Part shown: positions 20,390-47,797 of the stretch, in pieces
Position numbering within the stretch: the first letter of the stretch is position 1
Layout of the letters: every line of letters starts with the position of its first letter
Assembly (NCBI GenBank): GCA_031556715.1
Contig: JAVBSR010000089.1
Location: 1-62,302, forward strand
Reading direction: 5' to 3'
Source: Cellulomonas sp.
GTDB taxonomy: Bacteria; Actinomycetota; Actinomycetes; Actinomycetales; Cellulomonadaceae
Length of the DNA stretch: 62,302 nucleotides
The notes under the pieces: model-generated
The model's input: only the letters and a program-made list of their open reading frames with translations
Databases searched by the model: none
Told to the model about the DNA's origin: nothing
Made by a program: the position numbers and the translations under genes

Positions 20390-21046
20390 ATGACGAACGT
20401 CAGGTCGACCGTGCCCCGTGCGGGGTCGGTGCCAGAACAGGCGGCGCTGGTGCCTCTGCCGCCCAAGGCGAGGAGGCGATGGGGGCTGTTCGCAGCCGGC
20501 GTTCTGGTCACGTGCCTGGGTGTTCTCGGGTCAGTGTGGCTTTATCAGTCAACCACGACGGCGGTATCGGTGGTGGCCGCAAGCCACACCATCGAGCGTG
20601 GTCAGAAGATCGACCGAAACGACCTGGTCGTCGTTCATGTCGAGAAGGACCCGGCGTTGCGGACCGTGTCGGGAGATGACCTGGATTCTCTGGTCGGCCA
20701 GCGCGCGCTGTTCGACGTCGCGGAGGGCTCCTTGCTGACGCCGCAGGCCGTCGGTGAGACCAGCCTGCCCGGTCGGGGCATGTCGGTGATCGCGGTGCCG
20801 GTGGGGCCGGCGTTGGTGCCGACCGGACTGATGGCCGGTGACGACGTCCGGTTCGTCCCTGTCGGCTCCGGCGGCCAGTCTGGTGCGAGCGAGCCGGTCG
20901 CGGCGCAGGTCGTCGAGGTCCGTCCAGCCTCGAGCGACTCCTCCAAGGTCGTGGTCGAGGTCACAGTCCCGGACGGGTCGGCTGCTGCGCTGGCGGCGCT
21001 GGTCGGGAACGACGTCGCGGTGATCCTCGATTCCAGGGATCGGTGA
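20390..21046 (+). CDS. SAF-domain protein (CpaB/RcpC-like pilus assembly protein)
   Basis: GAGGAG RBS; TM helix followed by SAF-like VVAASHTIERGQKI..DL and LVGQRA..DVAEGSLL. Confidence 0.85.
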   Translation: MTNVRSTVPRAGSVPEQAALVPLPPKARRRWGLFAAGVLVTCLGVLGSVWLYQSTTTAVSVVAASHTIERGQKIDRNDLVVVHVEKDPALRTVSGDDLDSLVGQRALFDVAEGSLLTPQAVGETSLPGRGMSVIAVPVGPALVPTGLMAGDDVRFVPVGSGGQSGASEPVAAQVVEVRPASSDSSKVVVEVTVPDGSAAALAALVGNDVAVILDSRDR

Positions 21047-21052
21047 CCGGGC

Positions 21053-21865
21053 GTGGGTGTGTACTGCTTGTTGTCGGCATCGGGTTCGCCGGGTGTGACG
21101 ACCACCGCGCTGGGACTGACGCTGTCGTGGCCGAGCGGCCGGGCTGTGCTCGTCGATGCTGATCCGACGGGCGGATCGCCGATCGCAGCTGGCTATCTGC
21201 GAGGCCAGTACGTCCTGCCAGAGGCCCTGATCGAGCTGGCTCTCTCTCAGCAGGAAGGGATGCTGAGCGCGGCCACGATGGGCCAGCACCTGGTGACGCT
21301 GGCGGGATCGCAGGCGCGCTTCTTGCCCGGCATCCGTTCCCACGAGCAAGCACGGGGGCTGGTGGGCTTGTGGGAGCCGCTGGGTGACGTGCTCGACGAG
21401 ATCGGACGTTCGGGCACGGAGGTCGTGGTGGACGCCGGCCGGGCGGGCCTGTTCGGCCACGCCCAGCCCTTGGTGGACCGTGCAGACCTGACGCTGCTGG
21501 TAGTCCGCAGCAGCCTGGTCGCACTGTCGGGAGCGCGGTCGTGGGCGGACACGCTGCGCGAACGGTTTGCGCGGACCGGTGGGGCCAGGTCGCTCGGGGT
21601 CCTGATGATCGGAGATCGCGGGCCGTATTCGGCGCGGGAGGTAGCGCAGGTGCTCGGCTTGCCGGTCGTCGCCCAGGTGGCGTTCGATGCGGCAGCTGCG
21701 GCGGTGCTGTCGGACGGCGCCGACCCCAAGGGCGGCGGGCTGCAGCGCCTGGCAGGCCGGTCTGGGTGGGACGACTCGGCGCTGCTGCGGTCGCTGCGTG
21801 CCGCCGGAAGCGCCATGTCGGGCACTGCGCGGGCCGCCCTGGAGTTGGCGGGGAGACCGGTGTGA
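21053..21865 (+). CDS. MinD/ParA-like pilus localisation protein (TadZ/CpaE-like)
   Basis: Deviant Walker A SASGSPGVTTT, LVDADPTGG, VVVDAGR. Confidence 0.8.
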   Translation: MGVYCLLSASGSPGVTTTALGLTLSWPSGRAVLVDADPTGGSPIAAGYLRGQYVLPEALIELALSQQEGMLSAATMGQHLVTLAGSQARFLPGIRSHEQARGLVGLWEPLGDVLDEIGRSGTEVVVDAGRAGLFGHAQPLVDRADLTLLVVRSSLVALSGARSWADTLRERFARTGGARSLGVLMIGDRGPYSAREVAQVLGLPVVAQVAFDAAAAAVLSDGADPKGGGLQRLAGRSGWDDSALLRSLRAAGSAMSGTARAALELAGRPV

Positions 21866-23622
21866 CGGCCACGAACCTGGGGCCGTCCGGGATGCCGGTC
21901 TTCGGGACGGCGGCTGACCAGGCGGCGGGCCATCAGCCCCTCCAGGGTGCGCACACGATGCACGTCGCGCCTGGCACCCGTCCGGCGGGCCCCGCTGCGC
22001 CGGGTTCCTACCCTGCGCACGTCGCTCCGTCCGTCGGGCCGGTGCCGACCGGTCCCGTTGCGCATCTGGCGCCCGGTTCCGCTGGTTATCGTGCGGCGGC
22101 GGTCCCGTCGGCTGTGCAGCCGGGGCAGACGCCACGGTCGGCTCGGATGCCGCCCGGTGCAGTGATGCCCGGTGCGGTGATGGCCGGTGCGGTGATGCCC
22201 GGTCAGGTCGCAGCGGCAGCACAGCCGGGCGCGGCGGTTCCGCCAGCACCCCGCCCGGAGCCGGCGCGGGCGGTGGCGGTCGAGCCGGTGGACCGGGCGG
22301 TGGTGGTGCTGCTGCGCGGTCGTGTGGCCGAGCGTCTGGTCGACGTCGCAGGCGAGCCGCAGGCTGGTAGCGACGACCTGCGCGCCCGGGGGCGCGCAGT
22401 GATCGAAGAGGTCTTGCGCGAGTACACCGTGGAGGCGGTGGCGGCAGGCACTAGTGCGACGTGGTCGCCGGACCTGCGTCGGCGGACCGCCCAGGCGCTG
22501 TTCGACGAGGTGTTCGGGCTCGGGCGGCTGCAGTCCCTGGTCGACCATCCCGGGGTGGAGAACATCCTCATCCGCGGCGCGGACTACGTGCGGCTGCAGC
22601 TGGCGGACGGTTCGAAGGTCCGCGCACCGGCGATCGCCGACGACGACGAGGATCTCGTGCGGCAGGTGCAGTGGTGGTCGACCCGGCCGGGGTCGTCGTC
22701 GGCGCGGCCCTTCTCCTGGTCGGCCCCGAGGCTTCACATGAAGCTGCCCGGCGGGGCCCGGTTGGCGGCGACGGCGTTCGTCGTTGACCGGCCGACGGTC
22801 AACGTGCGGCTGCACCGTCTGGTCGTCGACAACCTGGAGGGCTGGGTCGCTCGGGGCTGCATGACGCTGGCGTGCGCGAGCTTCCTGGCGGCGGCGGTGA
22901 AGGCGGAGTGGTCGATCGTGGTGGCAGGTCCGATGAACTCGGGCAAGACCACCCTGGTCCGTGCCCTGTGCGCCGAGATTCCGCGTGGCGAGCTGATCGG
23001 GACGTTCGAGACCGAGTACGAGCTGTTCCTCGGTGAGACCGGGCAGCACGACGAGATCATCCCCTGGGAGGCGCGGCCTGGGATGGGCGAGATCGGGGCC
23101 GACGGCCGCCCGGCCGGAGAGTTCACCCTGGAGGAGGCGCTGATGGACTCCTTCCGCTTCTCCTTGGACCGGGCGGTGGTGGGTGAGGTCCGCGGCCCGG
23201 AGGCGGCGGTGATGGTCAAGGCGATGGAGTCAGGCACGGGTGTGCTGTCGACCACGCACTCGGCGGATGCCTCGTCCGCGATGCACAAGCTTGCCGGGTG
23301 CGCCGCAGAGTCCGGGTTGATGGACACCGAGCTGGGCCTGGCCAAGCTGTCGCGGTGCCTGAACCTGGTGGTGCAGCTGCGACGACGGGTCGTGGTCGGC
23401 AAGGACGGGACGCCGGCGATGCGACGGTGGATCAGCGAGGTCGCGGTCGTCGAGCCAGGGGAGCGGGATGCGGTGTTCGCGCTGACGCATGTCTTCGGGC
23501 CGGGCAACGACGGCCCGGCCCGCGCAACCGGGGTGCTCACCCCCGCGTGCGAGCAGCTGGTCTACCAGGGTTTCGACCGTGCCGGGTACCAGGCCGAATC
23601 GACAGGAGGGTGGGGAGCATGA
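21862..23622 (+). CDS. cpaF: Tad pilus assembly ATPase CpaF/TadA
   Basis: GLGRLQSLVD, Walker A GPMNSGKTT, Walker B VVGEVRG, His box STTHS. GTGA-coupled to the upstream gene. Confidence 0.92.
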   Translation: MTATNLGPSGMPVFGTAADQAAGHQPLQGAHTMHVAPGTRPAGPAAPGSYPAHVAPSVGPVPTGPVAHLAPGSAGYRAAAVPSAVQPGQTPRSARMPPGAVMPGAVMAGAVMPGQVAAAAQPGAAVPPAPRPEPARAVAVEPVDRAVVVLLRGRVAERLVDVAGEPQAGSDDLRARGRAVIEEVLREYTVEAVAAGTSATWSPDLRRRTAQALFDEVFGLGRLQSLVDHPGVENILIRGADYVRLQLADGSKVRAPAIADDDEDLVRQVQWWSTRPGSSSARPFSWSAPRLHMKLPGGARLAATAFVVDRPTVNVRLHRLVVDNLEGWVARGCMTLACASFLAAAVKAEWSIVVAGPMNSGKTTLVRALCAEIPRGELIGTFETEYELFLGETGQHDEIIPWEARPGMGEIGADGRPAGEFTLEEALMDSFRFSLDRAVVGEVRGPEAAVMVKAMESGTGVLSTTHSADASSAMHKLAGCAAESGLMDTELGLAKLSRCLNLVVQLRRRVVVGKDGTPAMRRWISEVAVVEPGERDAVFALTHVFGPGNDGPARATGVLTPACEQLVYQGFDRAGYQAESTGGWGA

Positions 23623-24500
23623 ACATCGCTGTGCTGGCCGGGATTCTTGGTGCGCTGGTCGCTGGCGGGTTGGTCGCAGCGGTCGCCGCGCTGACCAGTC
23701 GGGCGCGGCCACCGGGCCCGGGTCGTCGGCGACGCCAGACGGCACGGTGGTCGCGGCGGACCCAGGTGGTGCTGGTCGCTTCGATCGTCGCCGGTGTGGT
23801 TGCGGCGGCCTTGACGGGCATGGTGGTCCTGGTCCTCGTCGTTCCCCTCGTGGTTGTGGGGCTGCCGTGGCTGCTGTCCGCGCCACCGGCGAAAGCGGCG
23901 ATCCGGCGCCTGGAAGCGATGGAAGAGTGGACCAGGTCCCTGGCGGGGGTGCTCGCCCTGGGCAACGGCCTGGAACAGGCCATCGGTGTCACCCTGCGTT
24001 CCGTGCCTGAGCCGATCCGGCCCGAGGTCACAGCGTTGGGTGCTCGGCTGCGGGCCCGGTGGGACACCGAGAAGGCCCTGCGAACATTCGCGGACGATCT
24101 GGACGACGCCACCGGCGACCTCATCGCGGCCAACCTGGTTCACGCCGCCGGGCAGCGCAACCGAGCGCTGGCCCTGGCGCTGGAGGCCACTGCTGAAGCG
24201 GTTCGTGACGACGTAGCTGCCAGGCGCAAGGTCGAGGCGGGACGGGCCAAACCGCGGGGGGCGTCCCGCATCGTCCTGGGTATCGTCGCGGTCCTGACGC
24301 TGTTCTTGATCACGACGGGCGGCGGCTACCTGGACCCGTACCGCACCCCCCTAGGGCAGACGGTCATGGTGGTTCTCATCCTGGCGATGGGTGCCGCGCT
24401 GTGGTGGATGCGGGGCATGGCCGAGGGCCACGCGCCGCCGAGGTTCCTGACCGGTGTCGGCAGGTCTGCCAGCAGGACTGTCCAGGCAGGTGCCCGGTGA
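23619..24500 (+). CDS. tadB: TadB-like type II secretion F-domain protein
   Basis: EEWTRSLAGVL..GNGLEQAI, GYLDPY; directly follows cpaF with ATGA overlap. Confidence 0.85.
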   Translation: MNIAVLAGILGALVAGGLVAAVAALTSRARPPGPGRRRRQTARWSRRTQVVLVASIVAGVVAAALTGMVVLVLVVPLVVVGLPWLLSAPPAKAAIRRLEAMEEWTRSLAGVLALGNGLEQAIGVTLRSVPEPIRPEVTALGARLRARWDTEKALRTFADDLDDATGDLIAANLVHAAGQRNRALALALEATAEAVRDDVAARRKVEAGRAKPRGASRIVLGIVAVLTLFLITTGGGYLDPYRTPLGQTVMVVLILAMGAALWWMRGMAEGHAPPRFLTGVGRSASRTVQAGAR

Positions 24501-25402
24501 ACGGCCTGCAGATGGCCTTGCTGACCGGGTTGGCGGTCGGCGGTGGTCTGGGGGTCGTGCTGTGGGCGCTGGTGCGTGCCCAGCCGGACCTCGGTGACGT
24601 GCTGGCGCGCCTGTCGCCCGTGTCGCGACGGGTCGTGGCGCCCGTGGCATCCCAGGCGGAGCCGGGCACGCAGGAACGCGTGGGGATCTGGGCAGAGCGG
24701 ACCTTGCCTAGCGCGGTCCTGGGCACGGTGCCCGCGCAGGACTTGGCTGTCCTGGGTCGCTCGACTTCGTGGTTCTACGGCAAGAAGGTCGCCTACGCGA
24801 TGATGGGCCTGGCCATGCCCGCGGGGCTGGCCAGCGCGGCCGCAGTCGCGGGCTTCACCATGCCGTTCGCGGCTCCTGTCGTCGTCAGCCTGGGATTGGC
24901 CGCCGCGGCTTGGTTCGCGCCATCCCTGGATGTGGCGAAGGCTGCACGCGCGGCCCGCAACGAGTGTGCCCGGGCGTTGACCGCGTTCGTTGAGCTGTGC
25001 GCCCTGGAGCGCGCCTCGGGGGCCGGTGCGGCACAAGCCATGAACAGGGCCGCACAGATCGGCGACTCATGGTTGTTCGTCCGGATACGTGAAGAGCTAG
25101 CCCGGGCTGCGTACGACCGCACCGCACCCTGGGACAGCCTCGACGGCCTGGCGCACCAGCTGGGCCTGCCAGAGTTGTCGGAAATCGCGGACATCCTGCG
25201 CCTGGCCGGCGACGAGAACGCCCGCGCCTACGAACAGCTGCGAGCTCGGGCCGCTTCCATGCGCACCGCGCTGCTCGCTGACGAGGTCGCCGTCGCCTCC
25301 CAGGTCGAAGACCGCATGTACCTGCCGACCGCCGCAGTACTCGTTGTGTTCCTGGTCGAAATGCTGTTCCCCTCGCTGATCCAGATGATCAACGTCGCCT
25401 GA
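24497..25402 (+). CDS. tadC: TadC-like type II secretion F-domain protein
   Basis: ALERASGAG...AAQIGDSW.F.RI...LRARAASMR; GTGA overlap. Confidence 0.85.
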   Translation: MNGLQMALLTGLAVGGGLGVVLWALVRAQPDLGDVLARLSPVSRRVVAPVASQAEPGTQERVGIWAERTLPSAVLGTVPAQDLAVLGRSTSWFYGKKVAYAMMGLAMPAGLASAAAVAGFTMPFAAPVVVSLGLAAAAWFAPSLDVAKAARAARNECARALTAFVELCALERASGAGAAQAMNRAAQIGDSWLFVRIREELARAAYDRTAPWDSLDGLAHQLGLPELSEIADILRLAGDENARAYEQLRARAASMRTALLADEVAVASQVEDRMYLPTAAVLVVFLVEMLFPSLIQMINVA

Positions 25403-25423
25403 CAAACAAGAAAGGAAACTCCC

Positions 25424-25648
25424 ATGCACTACCTCGCCGCAATGTACTCCGTCACCAGGTTCGCCCTTCACGACCGCCTGCGCACCCGCCTCGAGAAACG
25501 CGAGGAGGGGATGGAGACCATCGAGGTCGCCATCATCGTGGCTGTCGTCGTCGTTCTGGCCATCGGCGTCGCCGCCGTCATCCGCAACTTCGTCAATACC
25601 AAGGTCGGCCAGATCGAGAACTGTCAGAACGCCACCGACGGCTGCTGA
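25424..25648 (+). CDS. flp: Flp family major pilin
   Basis: REEG|METIEVAII plus hydrophobic helix (Glu+5); AAAGGAAA RBS; 74 aa. Confidence 0.85.
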   Translation: MHYLAAMYSVTRFALHDRLRTRLEKREEGMETIEVAIIVAVVVVLAIGVAAVIRNFVNTKVGQIENCQNATDGC

Positions 25649-25687
25649 CACACTAGTCCCGACTCGACCTACTTTCGGAGGTAAGCC

Positions 25688-26257
25688 GTGCGAGCATTCA
25701 CGACGCGAGCGCTAGTAGTAGGCGCCGCCCTGACCTTCCTGGTGCTGACAGCCGCCGGGTGCACCTCTCCGGAACCCGGAAACCGTACCACCAGCCCAGT
25801 ACCCGAAATGTCTACTTCAAGCATCGAAGAAAGCCAGGCTGTCACCGACGCTACAGCGGCACTGCACCGGTTCTACGAAGTGCGAAGCCAATGTTTGTCT
25901 GATCCGCCGAACGCTGACGCCTCTTGCTTTGACGCCGTTGCGGTCGACCAGGTGCTGACCGACTCCCGGACCACTCTGGAGAACCTTCAGCGTGACGGGC
26001 TGCACTACGAGGGGGATCGCGAGGTTCTGTCGGTGGATGTCATATGGATCAACCTCGACGGTACTGACCAGCAGATCAGGCTGGCGGCCTGCGTCGACCA
26101 ACGCGCGTGGCGGCTGGTCGATGCGTCTGGGGCGCAGTTGAGTTCGGTGCCGACCGCTCCCCAGCGGGTCGTGTGGCAATTGATCAACCACGACTACCCG
26201 GCAGCTGACGAATGGAAGGTTGCCTACTATCCCGAAGAAGATTCGGCATCATGCTGA
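25688..26257 (+). CDS. Cassette family A lipoprotein (A1)
   Basis: Lipobox TAAGC; QCLSDPPNADASCFDAVA, ACVD, WKV and terminal Cys shared with A2/A3. Confidence 0.8.
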   Translation: MRAFTTRALVVGAALTFLVLTAAGCTSPEPGNRTTSPVPEMSTSSIEESQAVTDATAALHRFYEVRSQCLSDPPNADASCFDAVAVDQVLTDSRTTLENLQRDGLHYEGDREVLSVDVIWINLDGTDQQIRLAACVDQRAWRLVDASGAQLSSVPTAPQRVVWQLINHDYPAADEWKVAYYPEEDSASC

Positions 26258-27057
26258 ACGGGAAACGAACGATATCGGTCTTGCTGGCCACCGCGATTTT
26301 GTGTGTAGCGACCGCAGGGTCGTCGGCGGCCGAGTGGGAAACGCTGTCAAATGGCTGTCGTCACAATACGGAAAGCGACGAATACATCTGCCCTAAGCAG
26401 AACGCGGGTAGCCCGGGCACTTCCCGCCCGGCTTATCAGCCGAGCGAGGATCAGATCCAGACTTGGCGGAAGATCAGCAACGAGTGTCAACGCATGGAAG
26501 AGGAGTCGCAGAGAGCAGAGGCCACCGGTTTATATTGGAATCTGGATAGTCACACTTTCTATCAGAATCACTGCGTTGCGACTACGTCTCCGGAGGTTGC
26601 GGCGCGTGAGGTGGTGGCGTCGATGCAGTTGCCGACGCCGTCGGTCGGGATGACGCCGCGCCCGGGGCCTGATTCTGTGATTCTGGTCGGCTACAACGTC
26701 TGGATGTGGGTTGACCCGGGTTTGTTCGAACCCGTCAGCGCCGTGGCGACGCTCGATGGGACGAGTATTGGTGTGACCGGCCGCGTAGCATGGGTGGACT
26801 GGGACATGGGTGACGGAAATGTGGTCCGCTGTACCGGGCCGGGCACCCCGTACGTGCTGGATCGTGACGGGTTGGCCGCGTCGCCGGACTGCGGGCACGT
26901 GTACACCAACAAGCAGGGTGACATGACGGTGACGGCCACGGCCCATTGGGTCCTGGAGTGGTTCGGTGGCGGCCGGTCCGGCACCTTGACCGATACGACC
27001 GTCTCCACCATCCCAGTCACCGTCGGTGAGTGGCAGGTCCTGCTCAAGAGGGCATGA
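26251..27057 (+). CDS. Cassette family B secreted protein (B1): variable N-terminus, PKD/Ig-like C-terminus
   Basis: Signal peptide; WDMGDG..V.CTGPG...SPDCGHVY...VTATAHW. Confidence 0.8.
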   Translation: MLNGKRTISVLLATAILCVATAGSSAAEWETLSNGCRHNTESDEYICPKQNAGSPGTSRPAYQPSEDQIQTWRKISNECQRMEEESQRAEATGLYWNLDSHTFYQNHCVATTSPEVAAREVVASMQLPTPSVGMTPRPGPDSVILVGYNVWMWVDPGLFEPVSAVATLDGTSIGVTGRVAWVDWDMGDGNVVRCTGPGTPYVLDRDGLAASPDCGHVYTNKQGDMTVTATAHWVLEWFGGGRSGTLTDTTVSTIPVTVGEWQVLLKRA

Positions 27058-27196
27058 AGACCGGTGGGTACGGACTGCTGCGGTGCTCGGCTCAGGTTGA
27101 CCATCCATGTAGCCAGGGTGAAGCGAGGGGCGACGGTGCCGAGCTCATTGGATCCGACGCATGTTGGCGTGAAGAAACAGGGACGGAGGATACCCC

Positions 27197-28648
27197 ATGA
27201 GTGACGATCCGGAGCGGGAAAGAGCGTTGGGAATCTATCGAGACTCCCAGCGGCTCGAGAAAACCATCGGTAGGCTGAAACGTGCCATGATCGACTCGTT
27301 CATGGCAGAAAAGGTGTTCGGGGCTACGTTCGGGCATGGAGGTAATCGTTTTCAGTTCAAGCGGGATGAGTATCTACTTCGTAGCAGCCAGCCTCTCGGG
27401 GGTGACGACCATGTGGCGCGTCCTGACGAGTTCGGCGAGGGTGGTGGGCGTGCATGGAAGACGATGATCCCCGGGGTGTGGGATCAGTCGTACAGCGACA
27501 GCAAGGAGCTCGACTACACGGCCGAGTTTGAAGATGTCCGCACCTGGGTCGACAACCTGGATCTTGCCGGGGGGACGGTCGAGGCGTTCCGGACGAAGTT
27601 CGTCGTCAACCTGCGGATGGTCCTCAACGGGCACAGTTGTGTCGCCGCGCTGCTGGCCAGCAGCATGGCTGCGCAGCGAGGAGCGTGGGAGGAGGTCGGT
27701 GCCGGGTTCGTCCTGATCATCGAGACCTACACCCAGGTGTTCAACAGTCTCGCAGGCCTCGACGGCTCACCAGACGCCAACGTGCAGGTGCGCATCCTGC
27801 GGTATGCGGCCGCCGCCGCCGCCGACGGCCCGTGGGCCACCCTCCTCAACGGTGCCGCCGCCGCGCTTGGCCTGGTGGCCCTGTCCCGGGGTGAAGCGCC
27901 GCAGGACAACCGTTCACCAGAATCCTTCGCTCAGGGGAAGGCTGCCCTGGATGGGGCGCTCGACGCGCTGAACCGCGGTCTGTACGAGACCGAGAAGAGG
28001 ATCCGGGACACCATCACCGACAGCATGGAGGAGATCGGCAGCATCGAGAGGATCGTCGACGGCCGGCAGTATCCCGACAACCGTCAGAACTACGACCTCG
28101 CCCTCGCACCAATCACAGACTTTTCCGTGACGCACCCAGAACGCATCGGCTGGGACGGTGGGACCATCGCGTCGATCGTCAACGGCCCGATGCATGAGAT
28201 CGCCGAAGGGCTGCACGACCAGCTCCGTATCACCACCACATGGGACCTCGACATCGCGGAGACGGTGAAGCGTCACGCTCTGCTGGGCCTTGGCACCTAT
28301 GGTCCGAGCGCGGCGGTGCACGAGCTCAACGAGGTGCTGTGCGACCTGCTGGGCGACCTGAAGTGGGAGGTCGAGACAGGTGCCAGCCAGCTGTGGCTGG
28401 CCTACGACGCGAACATGCGGTGCAACGACCAGGCAGCAGCCGACCTGGCGGCACTCAACGCCCAACTTCCTCAGGGCAGCGGATACGACCCGTGGGACTT
28501 CCAGCCGGGAGGCCTGCCGTCCAGCCCCGAAGGGAGGGTATCGGTCATACCGATATGGCGGATGATGAGCGTCCCAGAGTTCGAGACAAAACCAGAGGTG
28601 GTAGAGGCCGAGCCAACGGAATACCAGTGGCAGGAGCGTGGAAAGTGA
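27197..28648 (+). CDS. Cassette family C helical protein (C1), WXG100/LXG-like
   Basis: GGAGGA RBS; paralog of 34835-36532 and 40876-42582; LAGGTVEAF motif. Confidence 0.7.
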   Translation: MSDDPERERALGIYRDSQRLEKTIGRLKRAMIDSFMAEKVFGATFGHGGNRFQFKRDEYLLRSSQPLGGDDHVARPDEFGEGGGRAWKTMIPGVWDQSYSDSKELDYTAEFEDVRTWVDNLDLAGGTVEAFRTKFVVNLRMVLNGHSCVAALLASSMAAQRGAWEEVGAGFVLIIETYTQVFNSLAGLDGSPDANVQVRILRYAAAAAADGPWATLLNGAAAALGLVALSRGEAPQDNRSPESFAQGKAALDGALDALNRGLYETEKRIRDTITDSMEEIGSIERIVDGRQYPDNRQNYDLALAPITDFSVTHPERIGWDGGTIASIVNGPMHEIAEGLHDQLRITTTWDLDIAETVKRHALLGLGTYGPSAAVHELNEVLCDLLGDLKWEVETGASQLWLAYDANMRCNDQAAADLAALNAQLPQGSGYDPWDFQPGGLPSSPEGRVSVIPIWRMMSVPEFETKPEVVEAEPTEYQWQERGK

Positions 28649-29553
28649 GAAACCTTCGTGCCAATCGGCCATCAGTGATGCTCGCGGTGCTCGTGCTGCC
28701 GGTGACGTTGGTACTCTCAACGACCGCGTGCACCCACAAGCCCGATGGCCCCTACTACCCCGACTGTCCAGGGCTGACCACACCCACTGAGGACCAGGCA
28801 GCCGACCTGAATGACAAGCTGTACGAAACCACGACCTACACCTTCGTCGTCGTGGGAAACGCTCAGGCCTGGGACGAGGACTCGGTGTTCGACCGAGTCC
28901 AGTCGCCGATGTGGAAGGCGACGGTCACGGTAGGCCCCTGGGTGCGTGGCTCGGATCAGCCAGGGCTGAGCAGTGCATGGGACGCAGTGTCGAATACAGG
29001 GCCCATGCCCCTGCCCAGCGGGCCTTACGCCTACACCGGAATGCTGACACGCGGGGTTGGCAAGTATGACCTCTCGCATGGGGGTAAGCATATGTGTTTG
29101 GACTCGCAGAAGGCTGCGTACATTTTCGGAACCGTGACGTTCGAGGACGCGACCGAGTTCTCTAAACCGCTGCCGGAAGGATACAGGCGACCGGACTACC
29201 CGACCTCAAACGAGATACAGGATGTGTCTCTCGAACTTGTGTCGGGGCCCGACAGGGCAGCGATACCGGATTTCTTCGGGTGTTACGAGCACCGATGCGG
29301 ATATTCCGAAAAGATCCGCGAGGCAGACGAGCTGGAGCTCCCGCTCATCTACTCGTACTCGGACGAAAATCAAGAGGGTGGTGCGGGGCCCCGCCCGTTC
29401 GTCATCGCAGTGCCGGACGCCTTCCCTTCAGGTACCAGCAAGGCTCCAGTCCTGGCTTCTGTGCTCCGCCTGACCAATACCAGACAGCCGCTTGAACAAG
29501 ACGGCGGCCAAGGGCTTTTCAGCACGGAAATCCCCACAAAGTTGGGCTGGTGA
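28645..29553 (+). CDS. Hypothetical lipoprotein coupled to C1
   Basis: GTGA overlap with the C1 stop; lipobox LSTTAC. Confidence 0.7.
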   Translation: MRNLRANRPSVMLAVLVLPVTLVLSTTACTHKPDGPYYPDCPGLTTPTEDQAADLNDKLYETTTYTFVVVGNAQAWDEDSVFDRVQSPMWKATVTVGPWVRGSDQPGLSSAWDAVSNTGPMPLPSGPYAYTGMLTRGVGKYDLSHGGKHMCLDSQKAAYIFGTVTFEDATEFSKPLPEGYRRPDYPTSNEIQDVSLELVSGPDRAAIPDFFGCYEHRCGYSEKIREADELELPLIYSYSDENQEGGAGPRPFVIAVPDAFPSGTSKAPVLASVLRLTNTRQPLEQDGGQGLFSTEIPTKLGW

Positions 29554-38367: not shown

Positions 38368-38497
38368 AGGTGAGCGCCGGAACGTGGATGTTGGCTCCAA
38401 ACTCGGGCTTGGCCCGTCGGTAGAGATGGAACAATCGTAATCACCAGAAAACACGGAGGAGGCTCGTTATGGAATGGATCTACATCTGGCGTCGTGA

Positions 38498-40056: not shown

Positions 40057-40194
40057 GAGATGCGCAATAACGGATCAGGCAGATGGGGAGGAGTAAATGC
40101 TCAGGTCGCAAGTGGAAGGGCGCTTGCTTGCATTATTCGTCGTGGTTGGTCGGCTCGATAACGAGTGAGATCAGTGAAGATCGGGAGGCTTCAG

Positions 40195-40800
40195 ATGAAT
40201 GTTCGACGTGCAGTCGCTGGCGGAACTATTGTAGCGGCTGTTCTTGCGGTTGCCGTCGTACTGGCGCGCACAGCGCTCATCGAGGATGGTGCGGATATGG
40301 CGCCGAGCCCGGAGTCGACCTACGAGCGCTCCGATTCGCGGGCCCAGAATGTTGCCGACGCGATGACAGCCTTCATCGCATACATGAGGGTGAGCGATGA
40401 GGTAGCCCAGAACCACTTCAGCAACTGGGAGGAAAAAGTCAAACCGCTGACCAGTGGTGAGGTCCAGGAATGGCACGAAGACTACGACGCCCAGGCCGAG
40501 GCGGAGCACTACAACCAGGTTGGTGAGCGGGTCGTTGAGAGCATCCATCTGAAACCAGGTAGGTACCGAGTGGATGCCGACGGGCTTGGGCGAGCAGACC
40601 TGGGGGCGTGCATCGACAACACCGAACTACAGGTGGCCGCACCCGGTAGTCAAGACGACGGTCTACCGCCCGGCAGATATTCCGTGTCGGTGATGATGGT
40701 GCTCTGGCCGGACGGGTGGAAAGTCAGCCAGTACTCCATTGATGATCCACAGTTGTCAGAAACTGGAATGTTGTCGTGCAGAACCGAAGGGTCGGAGTAA
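40195..40800 (+). CDS. Divergent family A-like protein (A4), TM-anchored, no lipobox
   Basis: GGAGG RBS; YNQVGER.V, ACIDNT, WKVS and a near-terminal Cys match the A-family layout. Confidence 0.65.
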   Translation: MNVRRAVAGGTIVAAVLAVAVVLARTALIEDGADMAPSPESTYERSDSRAQNVADAMTAFIAYMRVSDEVAQNHFSNWEEKVKPLTSGEVQEWHEDYDAQAEAEHYNQVGERVVESIHLKPGRYRVDADGLGRADLGACIDNTELQVAAPGSQDDGLPPGRYSVSVMMVLWPDGWKVSQYSIDDPQLSETGMLSCRTEGSE

Positions 40801-40875
40801 TGTCGAGAGCACCTGCTACGACAAAACTATCCGGTATGCGCGCGACGAAAGACGAGTCGATTTCGTGAAAAGGAG

Positions 40876-42582
40876 GTGATCGACGTGACGTGGCGGGATG
40901 AGCTCGAGACTTTGGTGGTGTTGTTGCGGCTGTCAGCCGTCGATGCCTACATGCGCAACCGGGGCTCCATGAAGGAGGAGTGGAATAATCGTGGTGATTT
41001 CTATGTAGAGGACCGGACGTCACTGCCTGCCGCCGGTAGGTCGAAACTATGTGCGCGCCCCAATGGGCAGGGATACGGTGGAGGTGAACTTTACGAGCAG
41101 CCCAGCGAAAGGATCATCGGGTCTGACCGGTACGTCGTGAAGTTTGAAGAGATTCAGTCTCGGATAGATAGAATAATGGAGCCGTGGTACCACCTGCCGG
41201 ACCCGGTGCTGATAGCTGAGGCTGCGACAGCCTACGGCGGCGTGCTCGAGGATCTGTCCCTCGGGGTAAACGAGCGCATCACGGGCAGAGGTTCGCTGGT
41301 GCCGAATATGACGCGCATTTGGGACGAGTTGATCGGTCATGACGGTGAGGGCCACTACATGCCTGCATTGGCAGGCGGCGCCATAGACGCTTTCAAGGAA
41401 TATGTCAAGAACCTAGACTGCGCGATAGGAGGTTGCGCAGGCATTGCGAGATCGCTTGCAGAGTATGTAACGGCGCAGCAAAAACTCTGGAAATCGGTTA
41501 GTCAAAATGTCGCGAGTCTCGTATCTCAGGTGATTGCAGCCTGCGTAGCAGTGGCAAATTCTGAGGGCCACGGTACGGGCATCGGCCTTGAGGAGACCGG
41601 GCTCGTTCTCGGCATCGCCAGCGCTGCCCCGGGCCCGGTGGGCAAAGCGGCTACTGCTGCGGGAGTTGTCCTGACGCTAGGTGCCGCTATAGACAAAAGT
41701 GATGTGCGGCAAGATGTTAAGATCGATAGTTGCGATAGCGCGATCGATGCCCTCGACAAGCTGCTGAATACTTCCTTCTACAGCCTCAGCGTGAATGAAA
41801 TGATCAGGACCTTCGAGCGCTCGACCCGTGAGGCTGTCACCACAAGCATACGGGAGGTTGATCTGCAGCGTGATCTGTTCGATCTGGTGCCTCACATTAT
41901 CGACTCGGTAGACGGTGTGATCCGTTACGACAAAAGGAAGGCCGACAACATCGTCGAAAGGTTGGATTCGATCGGCGTAGAGCTCGGTAATACCGCTAGC
42001 CTCATTTCGAACTGCGTGGCAGGGCTTCAGCCGCCGTTGGGTCCGCAGATTAGAAGGAGCAGTGTATTAGAGCGTGACTATTCGATCGGAGTGGGACGCA
42101 CGGGGCCGTCCGATGAGATCATTGCGCTCACAGATCTGCTAAATATGCTATTGGTTGAACTGTCTGAAGAGGTGTCTGCCGGTGCTGAGAACCTGAGATC
42201 GGCAATGGCAGCGCTGGATGGGTTCAACTCTCAAGGTGCGGCATCCTTGGCGGCGGCGGCCGAGACGTATGCCCTGAGCGACCGAGGAGGTATCGACTCC
42301 TTTGACTTTCACCCGTGGACGCCTGTCGGCCAGGCTGAAGTTCGTAGACGGAGCAGGTTGGACGATGTACTCGGACTCTCTAGCGGATCCTCGAACGGCG
42401 CCGGGGCCGCAGACGCGGCGCCGCAGGCCAATGCCGCGATGATCGACTGGAGCTTGATGGGGGGCCGAGCGCTGGATGATGTGTTCTCGTCGACAGCCCA
42501 GTCGTGGTGTGCCATGGACCCGGACGACCGTCTGGATGACGGCGAGGTGGTCATCCGACAACAGCCGGAGAAGCCTCGATGA
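40876..42582 (+). CDS. Cassette family C helical protein (C3), WXG100/LXG-like
   Basis: AGGAGG RBS (start 40876 or 40885); LSAVDAYM, WYHLPDP, LAGGAIDAF, IGVGRTGP. Confidence 0.7.
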   Translation: MIDVTWRDELETLVVLLRLSAVDAYMRNRGSMKEEWNNRGDFYVEDRTSLPAAGRSKLCARPNGQGYGGGELYEQPSERIIGSDRYVVKFEEIQSRIDRIMEPWYHLPDPVLIAEAATAYGGVLEDLSLGVNERITGRGSLVPNMTRIWDELIGHDGEGHYMPALAGGAIDAFKEYVKNLDCAIGGCAGIARSLAEYVTAQQKLWKSVSQNVASLVSQVIAACVAVANSEGHGTGIGLEETGLVLGIASAAPGPVGKAATAAGVVLTLGAAIDKSDVRQDVKIDSCDSAIDALDKLLNTSFYSLSVNEMIRTFERSTREAVTTSIREVDLQRDLFDLVPHIIDSVDGVIRYDKRKADNIVERLDSIGVELGNTASLISNCVAGLQPPLGPQIRRSSVLERDYSIGVGRTGPSDEIIALTDLLNMLLVELSEEVSAGAENLRSAMAALDGFNSQGAASLAAAAETYALSDRGGIDSFDFHPWTPVGQAEVRRRSRLDDVLGLSSGSSNGAGAADAAPQANAAMIDWSLMGGRALDDVFSSTAQSWCAMDPDDRLDDGEVVIRQQPEKPR

Positions 42583-42784
42583 TACTCCCAGCCATGTCTT
42601 GGCAGCAGGTGCGCTTGTCGCGAAAGTATTGGCCGTGGCACTGGGGCAGCCTTGCCCGCGTTGCTGCCATTTTTTTTGTCGGATGGTGGGACGGATGTTG
42701 TAGCACCGGTGTATTGAAGAACGCTCGGACCGTGCTGTGTGGGCTGCAGGGTACAGGGAACTGAAGTAAAGAAGGGATGGAGAG

Positions 42785-45700
42785 ATGATTCGAGCGCGGT
42801 TGGTAGGGCTGGGGTCGTTTGTGCTGCTGGTGGCCATAGTCGTGGGTGTGCCGGTGCTGTTGTGGACGGTCGCGGGCAGCCCGGTTCCTTCCGAGCTGCC
42901 GTCGCTCGACGAGGTTCGCACAGTGCTGACCAGCCCCGACGACGGATCAGTGCTGCTCGGGGCGGTGCGCATCCTGGCGTGGATCGCATGGGCGGTGCTG
43001 AGCCTGAGTGTTGTGCTCGAGGCGGCGGCGCGGCTACGCGGCACGCGTACTCCCCGGTTGCCGGGGCTGCGTTGGCCCCAGGTGGCAGCTCGCCAGCTGG
43101 TCGCGGCTGCGGCGCTGCTGTTCATTGTGGGAGTTCCAGCGGTGGTGTCGGTAGCAGGTCCGGCCCAGGCTGCGCCGCCGCCAGTGACGGCAACCGCGAC
43201 GGTCGAGGCGTCGGTCACGATGGCACCCGTTCCGATGCAGGTTGCGGCACCAGATCGGGTGGATGCGTCTGTCGTGTACACCGTCGTGGACGGAGACAGC
43301 CTCTGGAAGATCGCCGAATCGCAGCTGGGGGACGCGCACCGGTGGCAAGAGGTGTACCAGCTCAACGTCGGTGTGATCCAGGCCGACGGGTATGCGCTGG
43401 ATGACGCCGGGTGGGTCGAACCCGGCTGGCAGCTGGTTATGCCCACGGACGCGCAAGCCCCGTCTGCTGGTGTGGAGCACGTCTACACAGTGCAGCCTGG
43501 CGATACGTTGTCGCAGATCGCGGCAGACGAGCTGGGGGATGCGGGTCGGTATCCAGAGATCTTCGAAGCGTCGACCAGCGTCGTGCAACCTGACGGTCAG
43601 CACCTCGCCGATCCGGACCTGATCCATCCTGGGTGGCAGATGACGATCCCCGGGACGGTCGAAGCCGGTGCTCCCGAGGTCAGTCTGACGGAGGTTCCGC
43701 AGCTCGCACCGGGCAACCCGGCCGACAGCCTGTCGGCGCCCGAGGCGGCGTCGGCGCAGTCAGGAGCACCCGAGCTTGAGGCCGCTCAGCTCGACGACGC
43801 AGCGGCATCAGTCGCGGCCGACGCGACCGGCCCGGAGACCCAGAAAACTGACAGGTCCGCCCTGGAGGAGAGCGCTGTCGAGGCGGGGCAGAACACGGTC
43901 CCGGAGCGGGCAGGTTCGGGTGGGTCGCAGTCCGACGGTGCGCGAGAGCAGTCTGGTGTGCGGGGGTCCGGTGTGGGGGAGTGGGCGCCGTGGGTGCTGG
44001 GGGGATTGGCGGGTGCTGGTGGGGTGCTGGCAGGGTCGTTGTGGTTGGCGTTGCGGGCGCGGCGGCGGGCGCAGTGGCGGCATCGGTTGCCTGGTCGGAT
44101 GTTGGCGGTGCCGGGGCCGTTGCTGGCGCCGGTAGAAAAGACGGTGGTGGCGGTCGGTCCGGGGACGGCTGAGACGGTGGAGTTCTTGGACGGGGTGCTG
44201 CGGCGGTTGGGTGCGGTGGTGGCTGTCGGTGGGGGGGCGATGCCGGACCTGGTGGCGGTGGAGCTGACAGGGGAGCACGTGGTGCTGCACCTGGGTGGGC
44301 CGTGGGAGCTGGGTGTGCCGTGGGAGGGGTTCGACGGTGGTCATCGGTGGCGGGTGCCGGTGGGGGTGGATCTGGACCTGGTGGGTCCGGCGGGGGATCA
44401 TCCGGCGCCGTACCCGTTGCTGGTGACGGTGGGGACCAGTGACGAGGGTGGGGTGTGGTTGTTCAACCTGGAGGACCTGGCGGTGACACTGACCGGGGAT
44501 CTGGAGCGGGCGCGGGACTTCGGGCGGTATCTGGTGGCGGAGATCGCGTGCTCGCCGTGGGCTGCGTGGACGCGGGTGGAGTGTGTGGGTCTGGGGGCCG
44601 AGCTGGTGGGGTTGAACCCGGACAGGATCCGGTACCACCATCCTGGTGATGGTGGCGACCCGGTCGGTGACGCCCTGGCCGGGGCCATGACCACCGTCGG
44701 TCGTGCCACCGCCGCAGGGGCTGACGTCGTCACCGCCCGGTCCGTGGGGGCCGGCATGGAGTCGTGGTCACCGCTCGTGCTGATGGTGGATGCCACCAGC
44801 GACGACCCGGCGCTGGACCCCCTGCTGGACATCGTGAGCAACCATGCAGGCCAGACCGGCACGTCCGTGGTCGTGGCCGGGTCTCGGCCCGGAAGCGGAG
44901 GGGTGCAGATCGTGATCGGCGACGACGGTCGCGTCCGGTTGCCAGAGGTGGGTCTGGACCTGGCAGCGGTCGGGCTGGACATCACCGAGGCCGCTGGTTG
45001 TGCCGGTCTGGTCGCTCACGCCGACCTGGCTGTAGACCCGGTGTCGGTCCCGTACGACGACACCGCAGACACAGGCTGGCAGGCGTGGTCGGACGCGGCC
45101 GGGGCCTTGCGCCCGCAGTACACCGTGCCCCGTACGGACACCTGGTACGACCCGCAGGCAGCCTCCAGCGTGCTGCCGTCCGCTGACGAGGTATACCTCG
45201 ACGCTGCTGCGACCACCCCGGATGACCTGGCGGCCCTGGCGCCTCGGGTGCCGGTCGAGGTCCGCGACCAGGTCCAGGCGGCCGACCCGGGCCTGGACTC
45301 CGACCTGGCCGCCTGGTACTCCGGTACACCTCGGCCCAGGGTGCGGCTGCTCGGCCCCGTCCAGGTCGCAGCCACCGGAACCCCACCCACGCGGCGCGGA
45401 GCGTTCTTCACCGAGCTGGTGGCCTACCTCGCGCTGCACCCGCAGGGTGTGACACCCGCCCAGGTCGCAGAAGCACTGGGCATCGGCCGCAACAAGGCCC
45501 GCGAATACCTGCGGACCGTGCGAGCCTGGTTGGGCGTCGACCCGCACACCGGTCAGCCGTACCTGCCGGAGACCGACGACGACCGAGCCCGCCAGCTTCA
45601 CGCCCTGGTCGACCTGGACCTGTTCCGTCGGTTGCGGGTCCGTGGTCAGGCCCGCGGGGCCGACGGCACCGACGACCTGCTGGCCGCGCTGTACCTGGTC

Positions 45701-46084
45701 GCCGGGCGTCCCTTCGACGACCCGGCCGCCTGGCGGCCGGGCGGCTGGGCCTGGCTCGTCGAAGACCGCACCGACGAGACCGCGATGGTCGCCGTCATCG
45801 ACACCGCCCACACCGTGGTCACCCACGCCCTGGCCACCGGCGACCTGGTCATGGCCCGCCAAGCAGCCGAGACAGCCCAACGCGCCGACCCCTACGACGA
45901 GATCATCCGCCTAGACCTGGCCGCCGTCGCCTCCGCCGAAGGCCGCTACGCCGAAGCCGCCCGCATCGTCACCGACGACATCGGCAACCGCACCGACGAC
46001 GGACACGCCCCACCCGACCTCTCCCACCGCACCCAAGAAATCATCACCGCCCACCCCGACTGGCACACCACACGAGCATCATGA
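42785..46084 (+). CDS. Membrane protein: N-terminal TMs, two LysM domains, TM, degenerate ATPase-like domain, C-terminal wHTH/BTAD
   Basis: YTVVDGDSLWKIA and YTVQPGDTLSQIA...DPDLIHPGWQ (LysM); RVRLLGPVQV, ELVAYLALHP, LVAGRPF, DPYDE (SARP/BTAD-like). Confidence 0.85.
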   Translation: MIRARLVGLGSFVLLVAIVVGVPVLLWTVAGSPVPSELPSLDEVRTVLTSPDDGSVLLGAVRILAWIAWAVLSLSVVLEAAARLRGTRTPRLPGLRWPQVAARQLVAAAALLFIVGVPAVVSVAGPAQAAPPPVTATATVEASVTMAPVPMQVAAPDRVDASVVYTVVDGDSLWKIAESQLGDAHRWQEVYQLNVGVIQADGYALDDAGWVEPGWQLVMPTDAQAPSAGVEHVYTVQPGDTLSQIAADELGDAGRYPEIFEASTSVVQPDGQHLADPDLIHPGWQMTIPGTVEAGAPEVSLTEVPQLAPGNPADSLSAPEAASAQSGAPELEAAQLDDAAASVAADATGPETQKTDRSALEESAVEAGQNTVPERAGSGGSQSDGAREQSGVRGSGVGEWAPWVLGGLAGAGGVLAGSLWLALRARRRAQWRHRLPGRMLAVPGPLLAPVEKTVVAVGPGTAETVEFLDGVLRRLGAVVAVGGGAMPDLVAVELTGEHVVLHLGGPWELGVPWEGFDGGHRWRVPVGVDLDLVGPAGDHPAPYPLLVTVGTSDEGGVWLFNLEDLAVTLTGDLERARDFGRYLVAEIACSPWAAWTRVECVGLGAELVGLNPDRIRYHHPGDGGDPVGDALAGAMTTVGRATAAGADVVTARSVGAGMESWSPLVLMVDATSDDPALDPLLDIVSNHAGQTGTSVVVAGSRPGSGGVQIVIGDDGRVRLPEVGLDLAAVGLDITEAAGCAGLVAHADLAVDPVSVPYDDTADTGWQAWSDAAGALRPQYTVPRTDTWYDPQAASSVLPSADEVYLDAAATTPDDLAALAPRVPVEVRDQVQAADPGLDSDLAAWYSGTPRPRVRLLGPVQVAATGTPPTRRGAFFTELVAYLALHPQGVTPAQVAEALGIGRNKAREYLRTVRAWLGVDPHTGQPYLPETDDDRARQLHALVDLDLFRRLRVRGQARGADGTDDLLAALYLVAGRPFDDPAAWRPGGWAWLVEDRTDETAMVAVIDTAHTVVTHALATGDLVMARQAAETAQRADPYDEIIRLDLAAVASAEGRYAEAARIVTDDIGNRTDDGHAPPDLSHRTQEIITAHPDWHTTRAS

Positions 46085-46427
46085 CCAGACGAAGAGACGT
46101 TCTCGACAAAGGAGTAGCGCTGGGCGGCACCATCATCGACAGTCGGATCGGCATCCGGTACGGGCGCCGCGACCAGATAAGGAGGCTTGGCTCGCCAAGA
46201 AAGCAGCATTGATTGTGGCCGCAAGGGGTTCGTGGCGGCACGAGGGTTTAGATCGCAACTGAGCAGGGGGATAAGTGATGGTCGACAGGACACGTCTCTT
46301 CGGAGCCGTGATGACCAGCAGGCTGGTCCGGAAGAGGCAGGCCGTTCATTCTGACCGTGCGGGTGGCCGCGGAAGAGTTGGCCCTGCCGGGCAGGCAGCC
46401 GGAACGGGCCCCGGCAAGGCCGCAGGG

Positions 46428-46982
46428 ATGCTGCGGGTATCCCTGTGCGTGCTGCTGTGTGTCGCCCTGGCGGCGTTGTCCACGACGGCATGTACAGCCG
46501 ACCCGGACCCCGACTCCACGCCGGATGCTGCGGATTCTTGGACCGACGCCGACGAGGCTCGAGCCGTTCAGGAGGCCGAACAAGCCATACACGCGTACTG
46601 GCACGTGAGCACCGGGTGCCTCGCCGACCCGCCGAGTTCCGACCCGTCCTGCTTCGACGAGGTGTCGTACGGCGCCAAGCTGGAAGCCGACACGACCGCC
46701 CTGCGTATCGCGCAGGAGGACGGTCTCCGCTACGTCGGAGAGCCGACCTACCAGTCGACAGAAAAAGTGGAGGGCGTCGAGCTGTCCGGCGGTCAGGACA
46801 AGGAGGTCCGCCTGTCGGGATGCTGGAGCATCGACGGCTACGACATCGTCAGGCCCGACGGCACGTCGGTCATCCCGGCCGACGTGCCGCGGCGCACTCG
46901 CAGCATCTTCGTCGTGCGCCAGCACGAAGGAGCGTGGCGGGTGGCGGATATGTTCTTCGACCCGAAAGGGGTGGAATGTTGA
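46428..46982 (+). CDS. Cassette family A lipoprotein (A3)
   Basis: Lipobox LSTTAC; GCLADPPSSDPSCFDEV; terminal Cys. Start uncertain (46275-46428). Confidence 0.78.
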   Translation: MLRVSLCVLLCVALAALSTTACTADPDPDSTPDAADSWTDADEARAVQEAEQAIHAYWHVSTGCLADPPSSDPSCFDEVSYGAKLEADTTALRIAQEDGLRYVGEPTYQSTEKVEGVELSGGQDKEVRLSGCWSIDGYDIVRPDGTSVIPADVPRRTRSIFVVRQHEGAWRVADMFFDPKGVEC

Positions 46983-47797
46983 ACCGGTCGTGGGGGGCAG
47001 CCGTCGCAGCGTTCGTCGTCGTCGGAACCGTCGTTCTCGGCAGCGCGGAATCGGTATCGGCCAGCATTGCCGGGCCTCAGGCCGCCGGTACCGGCGAACC
47101 GTCAGGGGAGCGCCGCTACAACAGCGGAACCGGGCAGTACACCGGGACGCTCTCGGCCTCCGACGATCCTGGCTGGTCTCGTGGTTCGGAGGTCGAGGTG
47201 ACCAGGGACGAGCTCCTGCGGTGGGCGCGGATCCGGGAGCGGTGCATCAAGATCTCCGCCCATCGGGACTACTCGGGTGACCTGACGTTCGGGCAGGATT
47301 TCTACGACGCGAACTGTGTCGCTCGGGTTGACGACCCGGCAGCGGCCGTGCGTGACGTGGTGGCGGCCATGGACCTGCGGTCTCCGAATGTCGTCCTGAC
47401 GGCCGTGCCAGGTTGGGACCCGACCAGTCTGGTCAGCATCGACTCGTGGATGTGGGTGCAGAACCAGGAGATCTTCGAGGTGGTGACCGACACCGCCACC
47501 GTCGATCCCTGGACGATCAGCGTGTCGGGCCGGGTGGAGTGGATCGACTGGGACATGGGCGACGGTCAGGTCGTGCGCTGCACCGGTCCGGGCAAGGCGC
47601 TGGTCGTCAGTCGCCGTGAACCGTCGTCAGACTGCGCGCATGCGTACACCGAACCAGGCCAGTACCTGGTGCACGCGACCGCCCACTGGGTGGTCCAGTG
47701 GTCTGCCGGGGGGCAGTCCGGGACGGTGGTCACGGACCAGACCTCGACGGTGCCGTTCACGGTCGGAGATCGGCAGGTTCTGCGCGAGCGGCGGTGA
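46976..47797 (+). CDS. Cassette family B secreted protein (B3)
   Basis: MLNR signal peptide; WDMGDGQVVRCTGPG, SDCAHAY, ATAHW. Confidence 0.8.
   Translation: MLNRSWGAAVAAFVVVGTVVLGSAESVSASIAGPQAAGTGEPSGERRYNSGTGQYTGTLSASDDPGWSRGSEVEVTRDELLRWARIRERCIKISAHRDYSGDLTFGQDFYDANCVARVDDPAAAVRDVVAAMDLRSPNVVLTAVPGWDPTSLVSIDSWMWVQNQEIFEVVTDTATVDPWTISVSGRVEWIDWDMGDGQVVRCTGPGKALVVSRREPSSDCAHAYTEPGQYLVHATAHWVVQWSAGGQSGTVVTDQTSTVPFTVGDRQVLRERR

Follow-up and report, generated by a model that had tools for sequence, protein, structure and literature searches.

The window analysed here is the 62,302-nucleotide contig JAVBSR010000089.1 of a Cellulomonas sp. (contig C68 of the assembly G000, an actinomycete of 72% guanine plus cytosine (GC) and 86% completeness), and its sequence is matched by an invertebrate-gut metagenome run. 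Between topA and tmk-holB it holds a Tad/Flp pilus locus (Table 1). The assembly ATPase CpaF/TadA is present with TadB and TadC, as are Flp and TadE/G pilins with the prepilin motif, together with the accessory genes typical of the Cutibacterium plasmid pIMPLE: SAF, a TadZ-like ATPase, a LysM-BTAD protein and a gene pair, A-B. Placed inside this set are three genes of a family, C, that is likely to be EspB-like, a predicted type VII secretion substrate and the real cargo of the locus, and several membrane-anchored neighbours (the lipoproteins D and E and a mycosin-like protein). Paralogy comparisons confirm the module counts of the initial annotation of this DNA (four A, three B, three C and two D), a list that omits E. 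Domain scans of the locus revealed no prepilin peptidase among its genes.

Table 1. Features of the Tad locus, in window coordinates
Feature	Position	Strand	Basis or remarks
Island	19478..47953	.	absent from same site (topA-M1 ... Gfo-tmk) in closest relative checked, G841
SAF/CpaB-like (core)	20390..21046	+	PF08666 over cut-off; 36% to pIMPLE
TadZ/CpaE/MinD-like ATPase (core)	21053..21865	+	TIGR03815 E 1e-8, below cut-off; 31% to pIMPLE
CpaF/TadA assembly ATPase (core)	21862..23622	+	PF00437 over cut-off
TadB (core)	23619..24500	+	PF00482 over cut-off
TadC (core)	24497..25402	+	PF00482 below cut-off; 33% to pIMPLE
Flp major pilin	25424..25648	+	prepilin G/E+5 motif; PF16982 weak; 89% to G841
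A1 lipoprotein (core family A; likely NTF2-like)	25688..26257	+	paralogy, alignment
B1, secreted, PKD/Ig-like C-terminal domain (core family B)	26251..27057	+	paralogy; weak PKD matches in B2, B3
C1, EspB-like predicted type VII substrate (cargo)	27197..28648	+	lacks about 50 family-core residues
E, lipoprotein-like partner of C1	28645..29553	+	GTGA overlap with C1; C1-E pair also in G842
TadE1 minor pilin	29869..30261	+	PF07811 over cut-off
TadE2 minor pilin	30258..30710	+	PF07811 over cut-off
TadG-like minor pilin	30765..31313	+	29% to annotated TadG-related protein of a Streptomyces plasmid
A2 lipoprotein	31310..31894	+	paralogy, alignment
B2	31888..32709	+	paralogy, weak PKD match
Frameshifted TadE2 copy (remnant)	32788..33212	+	DNA/translated comparison
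D 5' remnant	33203..33353	+	78% DNA identity to D1
Mycosin-like pseudo-protease	33423..34838	+	PF00082; TIGR03921 80.7 bits vs cut-off 278.75; ATGA overlap with C2
C2 (cargo; copy used for structure model)	34835..36532	+	model and structural comparison
B 3' remnant	36407..36742	+	sequence comparison
TadG-like 5' remnant	36840..36974 (approx.)	+	weak, independent E-value 0.009
D1 lipoprotein, predicted NTF2-like and PsbP-like domains	37006..38367	+	model, structural comparison
B 3' remnant	38499..38635	+	81% DNA identity to B2
D2 lipoprotein	38683..40056	+	62% to D1
A3, divergent membrane-anchored A	40195..40800	+	alignment with family A
C3 (cargo)	40885..42582	+	paralogy, tree
TM-LysM2-TM-HTH/TPR (BTAD-like) core protein (TM, transmembrane)	42785..46084	+	domain matches; 26% to pIMPLE
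A4 lipoprotein	46428..46982	+	paralogy, alignment
B3	46976..47797	+	paralogy, weak PKD match

The Tad core and its island

The core, including one A-B pair, appears from sequence to be the known plasmid-type Tad locus of Cutibacterium acnes pIMPLE-HL096PA1, with which it has SAF, TadZ, TadA, TadB, TadC, Flp, TadE-type pilins, LysM-BTAD and one A-B pair in common (PMC3666418). Identities to pIMPLE and to Streptomyces plasmids are 26-46% and the core order is identical; a tblastn search gave no TadG match on pIMPLE, and the Streptomyces plasmid has homologues of all core genes except Flp. On both plasmids the Tad locus lies near conjugation genes, those of TcpC/VirB4 type being 10-20 kb away on the Streptomyces plasmid. 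The plasmid loci have a single A-B pair, conjugation genes alongside and no C, whereas the window locus is chromosomal, has no transfer genes that we could find, has duplicated A, B and TadE, and holds C, mycosin-like, D and E cargo inside. Five relatives in the genus have the core order A-B-SAF..LysM, followed in 3/5 by conjugation-type genes (Pfam-checked for G007), and two other cores of the genus (50-58% CpaF identity) are minimal, with one A-B pair each. The large LysM protein, first described as LysM-BTAD, has two LysM domains and HTH and TPR matches. Pfam BTAD gave no match in it at E 0.05, although the homologous protein of pIMPLE is entered as LysM, BTAD (PMC3666418).

The Tad locus is a genomic island. 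G841, which lacks it at this site, has a topA 94% identical to that of G000, and in G843 topA directly adjoins the Gfo gene. These belong to a set of close genomes (G000, G006, G841, G842 and G843), kin rather than independent cases, in which topA identity to G000 runs from 94 down to 82%. GC is 0.59-0.66 in the cargo, 0.71 in the core and 0.72 in the genome, and domain-library scans of the window proteins detected no integrase or transfer genes among those of the island. As initially described, all genes from 20390 to 47797 are on the + strand with ATGA or GTGA overlaps, which we count at 7/23 junctions; the three A/B pairs each overlap by 7 nucleotides. Promoter and terminator scans of the locus gave chance-level results only, so it is the overlaps that argue for an operon. 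RNA run X2 has short matching pieces over several locus genes, pieces that cannot show transcription. Gross misassembly of the array was considered and rejected, given a second assembly, possibly from the same source reads, in which one 18.4-kb contig covers 26603-44995 with 0 differences and flat depth.

Families A and B are core rather than cargo. Across Actinomycetes, a B-anchored scan confirmed 217 matches; we retained the top 80 and counted the 53 whose flanks were complete, leaving aside 27 with shorter ones. A adjoins B in 52/53 of these loci, a tad core lies within 10 kb in 43/53, and two B copies occur in 0/53. Because A-B is constant and single-copy in these loci elsewhere, the pair is part of the core of this Tad subtype, multiplied locally in G000 and its close relatives, and the initial proposal that A and B are exchangeable cassettes in general was rejected. 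A1, A2 and A4 are mutually 31-41% identical; A3 has a plain N-terminal anchor with no lipoprotein cysteine and reaches a BLAST E of only about 0.01, yet it aligns with the family. The atlas neighbours of A2 are ARC6-IMS/DUF6318 at 0.90, which is a lead only, and the family A profile matched nothing significant among PDB sequences. B1-B3 are mutually 40-47% identical; the family is found on 202 plasmid records and is annotated on plasmids as 'ATP/GTP-binding protein'.

The gaps between modules hold five gene remnants (TadE, D, B twice and a weak TadG-like one), in agreement with the five or more decayed fragments first noted there, and the cassette turnover proposed at the same time fits such remnants left at junctions. 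Copies of B, TadE, A and D are 62-81% identical to one another. Elsewhere in the assembly, close to one end of contig C25 (4860-6564), a pair of A-type genes accompanies what is left of the 3' part of an E gene (65% identical). One and the same ABC ATPase/permease pair (73% and 44%) lies at G000:C70 (20062-21629) and at G841:C28 (14904-16477), both times within TadE-A-B modules. At the right edge of the island, the 3' end of B3 forms a tandem repeat (47776-47839; a 33-nucleotide unit, 31 apart), and similar sequence ends B1 (27036-27068), a possible recombination scar. Two paralogous multi-pass membrane genes of no known family (18302-19471 and 49053-50090; 29% identical) flank the island; at this site G841 has the first only and G843 neither.

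Family C and type VII secretion

C1-C3 are mutually 24-27% identical (E 1e-19 to 1e-24). A word-based search found only four relatives outside the window and the wider set came from a profile search, which returned 710 clusters at 50% identity. Of these, 165 reach E 1e-30, and lengths among the best 150 are mostly 430-560 residues; the family offers no conserved stretch usable as a search pattern. C is rare, occurring in 5/301 genomes of the order, 8/401 of the class (4 candidates scored per genome in these two counts) and 8/110 of the genus, G000 included, and the carriers of tad-embedded C appear to be metagenome assemblies. The proteins have no signal peptide. Beyond the conserved part, the proteins in an alignment of 137 rows run on for a median of 22 residues (more than 100 in 2/137), and C therefore carries no fused C-terminal toxin domain, unlike polymorphic toxins of the LXG/Eat type.

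A model of C2 (predicted local distance difference test score 80) comprises a long helical bundle and a small N-terminal beta head. Its top and longest structural match is EspB (Z 9.9, root-mean-square deviation 4.2 over 225 residues), with further EspB entries at ranks 3 and 6; the C profile matched nothing significant among PDB sequences, EspB included. At 5/19 loci outside the close relatives C is split into a small gene (profile 345-444) and a large one (about 93-339); 4/5 of the small partners have the motif YxxxD, and the third gene of one of the four split loci tested gave a weak YbaB match. C is a naturally fused form of a gene pair in which YxxxD stands in the small member. The family has an M/L-x-G turn (G in 93%), a hydrophobic-xxx-D/E motif in 104/137 members and a Gly/Ala-rich hairpin that is the most hydrophobic segment in 99/137. 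The split loci (L046:9174-12035, L051:8283-10927, L052:8140-10983, L041:9926-12740 and L042:9501-11355) are placed away from any ecc or tad locus; they comprise a small partner (with YxxxD in 4/5), a large helical protein and a possibly YbaB-like gene of 160-180 aa, usually with a lipoprotein gene.

The distribution of C follows that of the ESX (type VII) ATPase EccC. EccCa scores over the cut-off in 19/19 other C-carrying genomes and in G000 too (20/20); within the genus EccC does so in 51/110 genomes, comprising 8/8 C carriers and 43/102 others (Fisher p 0.0016, overstated by kinship). EccC, WXG100, EccB and EccD are absent from the window in domain scans and present on contig C11 of the same assembly, where a full ESX locus has a C gene directly after eccC. 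A C gene also directly follows eccC on G843:C8, and in G784 one lies about 6 kb from it. Among the 17 whole C genes whose context is available in the five close genomes (fragments and contig-edge matches left out), 11 are at tad loci or modules, two after eccC and four solo. Conversely, tad genes occur at type VII loci: in G006 a related tad locus sits between gatC and eccC, flanked by the T7SSa core, and the type VII loci of G841:C28 and G841:C5 have B-A-TadE-TadG modules at their sides. In four related genomes, then, the co-location of tad with type VII genes runs both ways.

Since C is type VII-like and tracks EccC, and since tad modules also stand at type VII loci, C is most likely exported through ESX and not through Tad, probably by the ESX locus of contig C11. 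The initial annotation had expected cpaF-dependent export, to which nothing points; its recognition of type VII-like parts holds, both for C (EspB likeness, co-occurrence with EccC, YxxxD in the split partners) and for the mycosin-like protease. Other type VII loci in the assembly are a minimal WXG100 and EssC-like locus with toxin/immunity-like genes (C14, 10478-21169) and one with a second EccC over the cut-off (C81, 169-10215). A second, chromosomal Tad subtype has WXG100 and an EssC-like ATPase directly after it in G009, G004, G010, G035 and G883, and variable toxin/immunity-like genes stand behind its loci L007-L012, L014 and L146.

Partner genes and cassette differences

In the close relatives, a gene for an envelope-anchored protein adjoins most C genes, and these neighbours belong to five or more families that are unrelated to one another. 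A quick tree places C1 with the G842 gene that likewise has E after it (support 85), C2 with another mycosin-preceded gene and one G006 gene (87), and C3 with the C gene of contig C18 (99), the last two both preceded by A3-type genes; three genes trailed by one lipoprotein family form a group (100). Partner type thus appears to track C subclade, while the tad-located C genes are scattered and do not form one clade. In G841 a further lipoprotein family, with five members at 30-47% identity (L155, L157, L151, L154 and L150), accompanies C genes that are either whole or broken.

The partner of C2 was first read as a mycosin-like pseudo-protease, a description that its features support: a signal peptide, a subtilase domain and a C-terminal transmembrane segment, with the Asp of the triad kept, Arg in place of His and Pro in place of Ser. 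By its residues it would be catalytically dead, as would the copy in the tad locus of G841; the triad is complete in one G843 copy, which adjoins a fragment of a C gene. G843 has 16 mycosin-like matches over many sites (L173, L175-L182), often in tandem and often adjoining small genes, possibly helical type VII partners, and the catalytic His is retained in most of the copies checked.

A search of four close genomes gave no D. The PsbP-like fold of its C-terminal domain is best matched by the type VI secretion immunity protein TplEi (Z 9.8, 128 residues), and its N-terminal domain resembles TraM/TcpC/VirB8 (Z 6.3-6.5); Foldseek gave no match to the D model at E 0.001. Similarity between the profiles of A and D is confined to the signal peptide and so does not show that D derives from A. 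D is best read as a captured orphan; the suggestion that C and D form a fixed pair was rejected, D homologues being solo genes.

Between orthologous loci of close relatives the core is constant and the cassettes differ, as the initial annotation had anticipated for cassette number and order. Contig C40 of G841 holds the orthologous core, with 80% DNA identity over 20372-26287, 77% over TadE-TadG-A2 and over the 5' end of the LysM gene, and core genes 72-90% identical to those of the window. A1 is present there in four copies and A2 in three, the latter followed by B2; B1-C1-E is missing, and between B2 and LysM stands a C only 22-25% identical to C1-C3 with a different lipoprotein. On G842:C32 (CpaF 92%) the start of the core is present and C1-like and E-like genes lie upstream of SAF. 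G000 itself has two further tad loci or modules with C.

Explanations and known systems

We tentatively favour, as the best overall explanation, a plasmid-type Tad pilus with swappable cassettes whose C proteins are exported by ESX and act on the envelope of the contacted cell. A plasmid-type operon, housed in the chromosome without conjugation genes, would hold lower-GC cassettes in its internal slots; the pilus would be assembled and hold a neighbouring cell, with the A, B and TadE/G copies as alternative tip modules. C would be exported as a single chain by the separate ESX machine of the genome and may act on the touched envelope through the Gly/Ala-rich hairpin or the small N-terminal head, while the membrane-anchored neighbour of each C would give protection against it or anchor it. 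Cassettes would be swapped, and the junction remnants left behind, by recombination among the paralogues of B, TadE, A and D.

A number of observations weigh against this explanation. The EspB match has a Z tied with ferritin-like bundles of about 135 residues and below the 13 asked for helical bundles, and Foldseek gave no match to the C model at E 0.001. No catalytic or known toxin domain came near a Pfam or NCBIfam cut-off in the copies scanned; in C1-C3 the secretion motif is degenerate, with N replacing D/E, and the hairpin is not the most hydrophobic stretch. The tad linkage that the initial annotation extended to all four families stands for A and B; C lies near tad genes at 0/19 loci outside four close genomes, and the six metagenome homologues of D, one with almost no flank, are solo with neither tad nor C as a neighbour. 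No C or type VII genes lie within 10 kb of B at the 53 B-anchored loci from Actinomycetes, and G843 carries C while this CpaF subtype and B were not found there. The PsbP-like fold of D matches ordinary lipoproteins equally well and is common among them, and two of the five kindred genomes are less than 90% complete.

The strongest competitor, which we consider rather improbable, holds that an ordinary adhesion pilus has duplicated its tip modules and that ESX cassettes land in a recombination hot spot, the two systems being independent. The solo C genes of the same genomes and the lack of tad linkage elsewhere fit this, as do the mycosin-like matches scattered through G843 and the capture of solo D genes, and the co-location in Bacillota has been left open as possibly coincidental (Garrett et al. 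2024, PMC11217815). However, the tad loci and modules that hold 11 of the 17 whole C genes make up a small part of each genome, and repeated arrivals are implied because the tad-located C genes are not one clade; moreover, tad modules sit at type VII loci as well, and the second Tad subtype is directly trailed by WXG100 and an EssC-like gene in at least five other genomes. Less probable still is a non-toxic role for C at the cell surface: after export by ESX it would form a ring or filament in the manner of EspB, dock on its membrane partner and serve adhesion or kin recognition with the pilus. C has no toxin domain, in other genera many copies of C lack an evident partner, a risky arrangement were C a toxin, and EspB is described as oligomerising after secretion (PMC6109436). 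Yet three features are those expected of conflict systems: paralogues that have diverged deeply (to about 25% identity), partners exchanged between five or more unrelated envelope families, and arrays of orphan partners.

We regard it as very unlikely that the locus is a relic of a conjugative element, with the pilus a former mating-contact structure and the lipoproteins decaying exclusion or mating-pair factors. The same core stands beside conjugation genes on pIMPLE, a Streptomyces plasmid and integrative and conjugative elements of the genus, B is widespread on plasmids, the D N-terminal domain has its VirB8-like resemblance, and there are the five remnants. Yet the core genes are intact and conserved with G841, C tracks EccC and not conjugation genes, and searches for a relaxase (TrwC, the one type queried) and for a coupling protein (a single VirD4 query) gave no match in 5/5 close genomes. 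Conjugation-gene queries from one such element had no hits within 10 kb at the 53 B loci, but they miss the TcpC/VirB4 type and are not evidence of absence. Least probable of all is export of C by the Tad machine itself as a self-contained killing apparatus like Kil of Myxococcus, a diderm predator in which a Tad-type pilus has been proposed for contact-dependent killing and for which we know of no type VII-like cargo. The C genes are embedded and co-oriented in the operon, in a window with no ecc or WXG100 gene; against this stand the type VII hallmarks of C, its occurrence where this Tad is lacking, and the presence of EccC in every C carrier tested.

C may resemble EspB/PE-PPE substrates, which occur with MycP and YbaB-fold chaperones, in its modelled fused four-helix bundle with an extended tip, the [M/L]xG turn, YxxxD in the split homologues, a subtilase neighbour and a weakly YbaB-like third gene. 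The YxxxD-bearing half, N-terminal in EspB, is C-terminal in C, which also has an extra N-terminal head, a dead neighbouring protease and no sequence match. A YbaB fold has been proposed for the Esp chaperones (PMC6109436). In Actinomycetota, T7SSa antagonism with lipoprotein or transmembrane immunity beside the toxins is described for EatA-TapA-EatI (PMC13444075). Like these and LXG-Lap loci, C loci are strain-variable and combine a helical substrate, a small helical partner (fused in C) and an adjacent lipoprotein or transmembrane gene; C differs in having no variable C-terminal enzyme domain, and the EatA-TapA-EatI and LXG-Lap loci are not known to lie in tad operons. S8 protease-linked toxins differ from the C system because they are described as Sec-exported (PMC9424270). 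T7SSg and T7SSh of Bacillota have Tad pilus genes beside type VII genes, a link left unresolved in the main account (Garrett et al. 2024, PMC11217815). They too place Tad genes near type VII genes, but belong to another phylum and T7SS subtype and have the T7SS core beside tad; in the window there is no T7SS core, substrates and partners lie inside the tad operon and the T7SSa machine is on another contig, the two being adjacent only in G006.

What is new here is type VII cargo inside a pIMPLE-type Tad operon; the core itself and Tad beside T7SS in Bacillota were known. Family C is apparently an undescribed class of single-chain substrate: we found no account in the literature of the family, or of type VII cargo in this Tad subtype, although the supplements of PMC11217815 and PMC13444075 could list such loci. 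Extending the favoured explanation, one can imagine, though we think it doubtful, a conjugation-type Tad pilus turned to use as the arm that aims a type VII weapon: exchangeable modules at the tip (TadE/G-A-B) would choose and hold the target, a new class of enzyme-less single-chain ESX effectors would be delivered on contact, and against each effector there would be a matching envelope protein, in one case a dead mycosin serving as immunity. The locus bears on the open question of how, with no needle, type VII effectors are brought to a target cell, and, with substrates inside a tad operon, tad modules at type VII loci and orthologous loci that swap cargo, it supplies named gene pairs with which to approach it. 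If true, the pairing of Tad pilus and cassette would link cell contact to attack on neighbouring bacteria.

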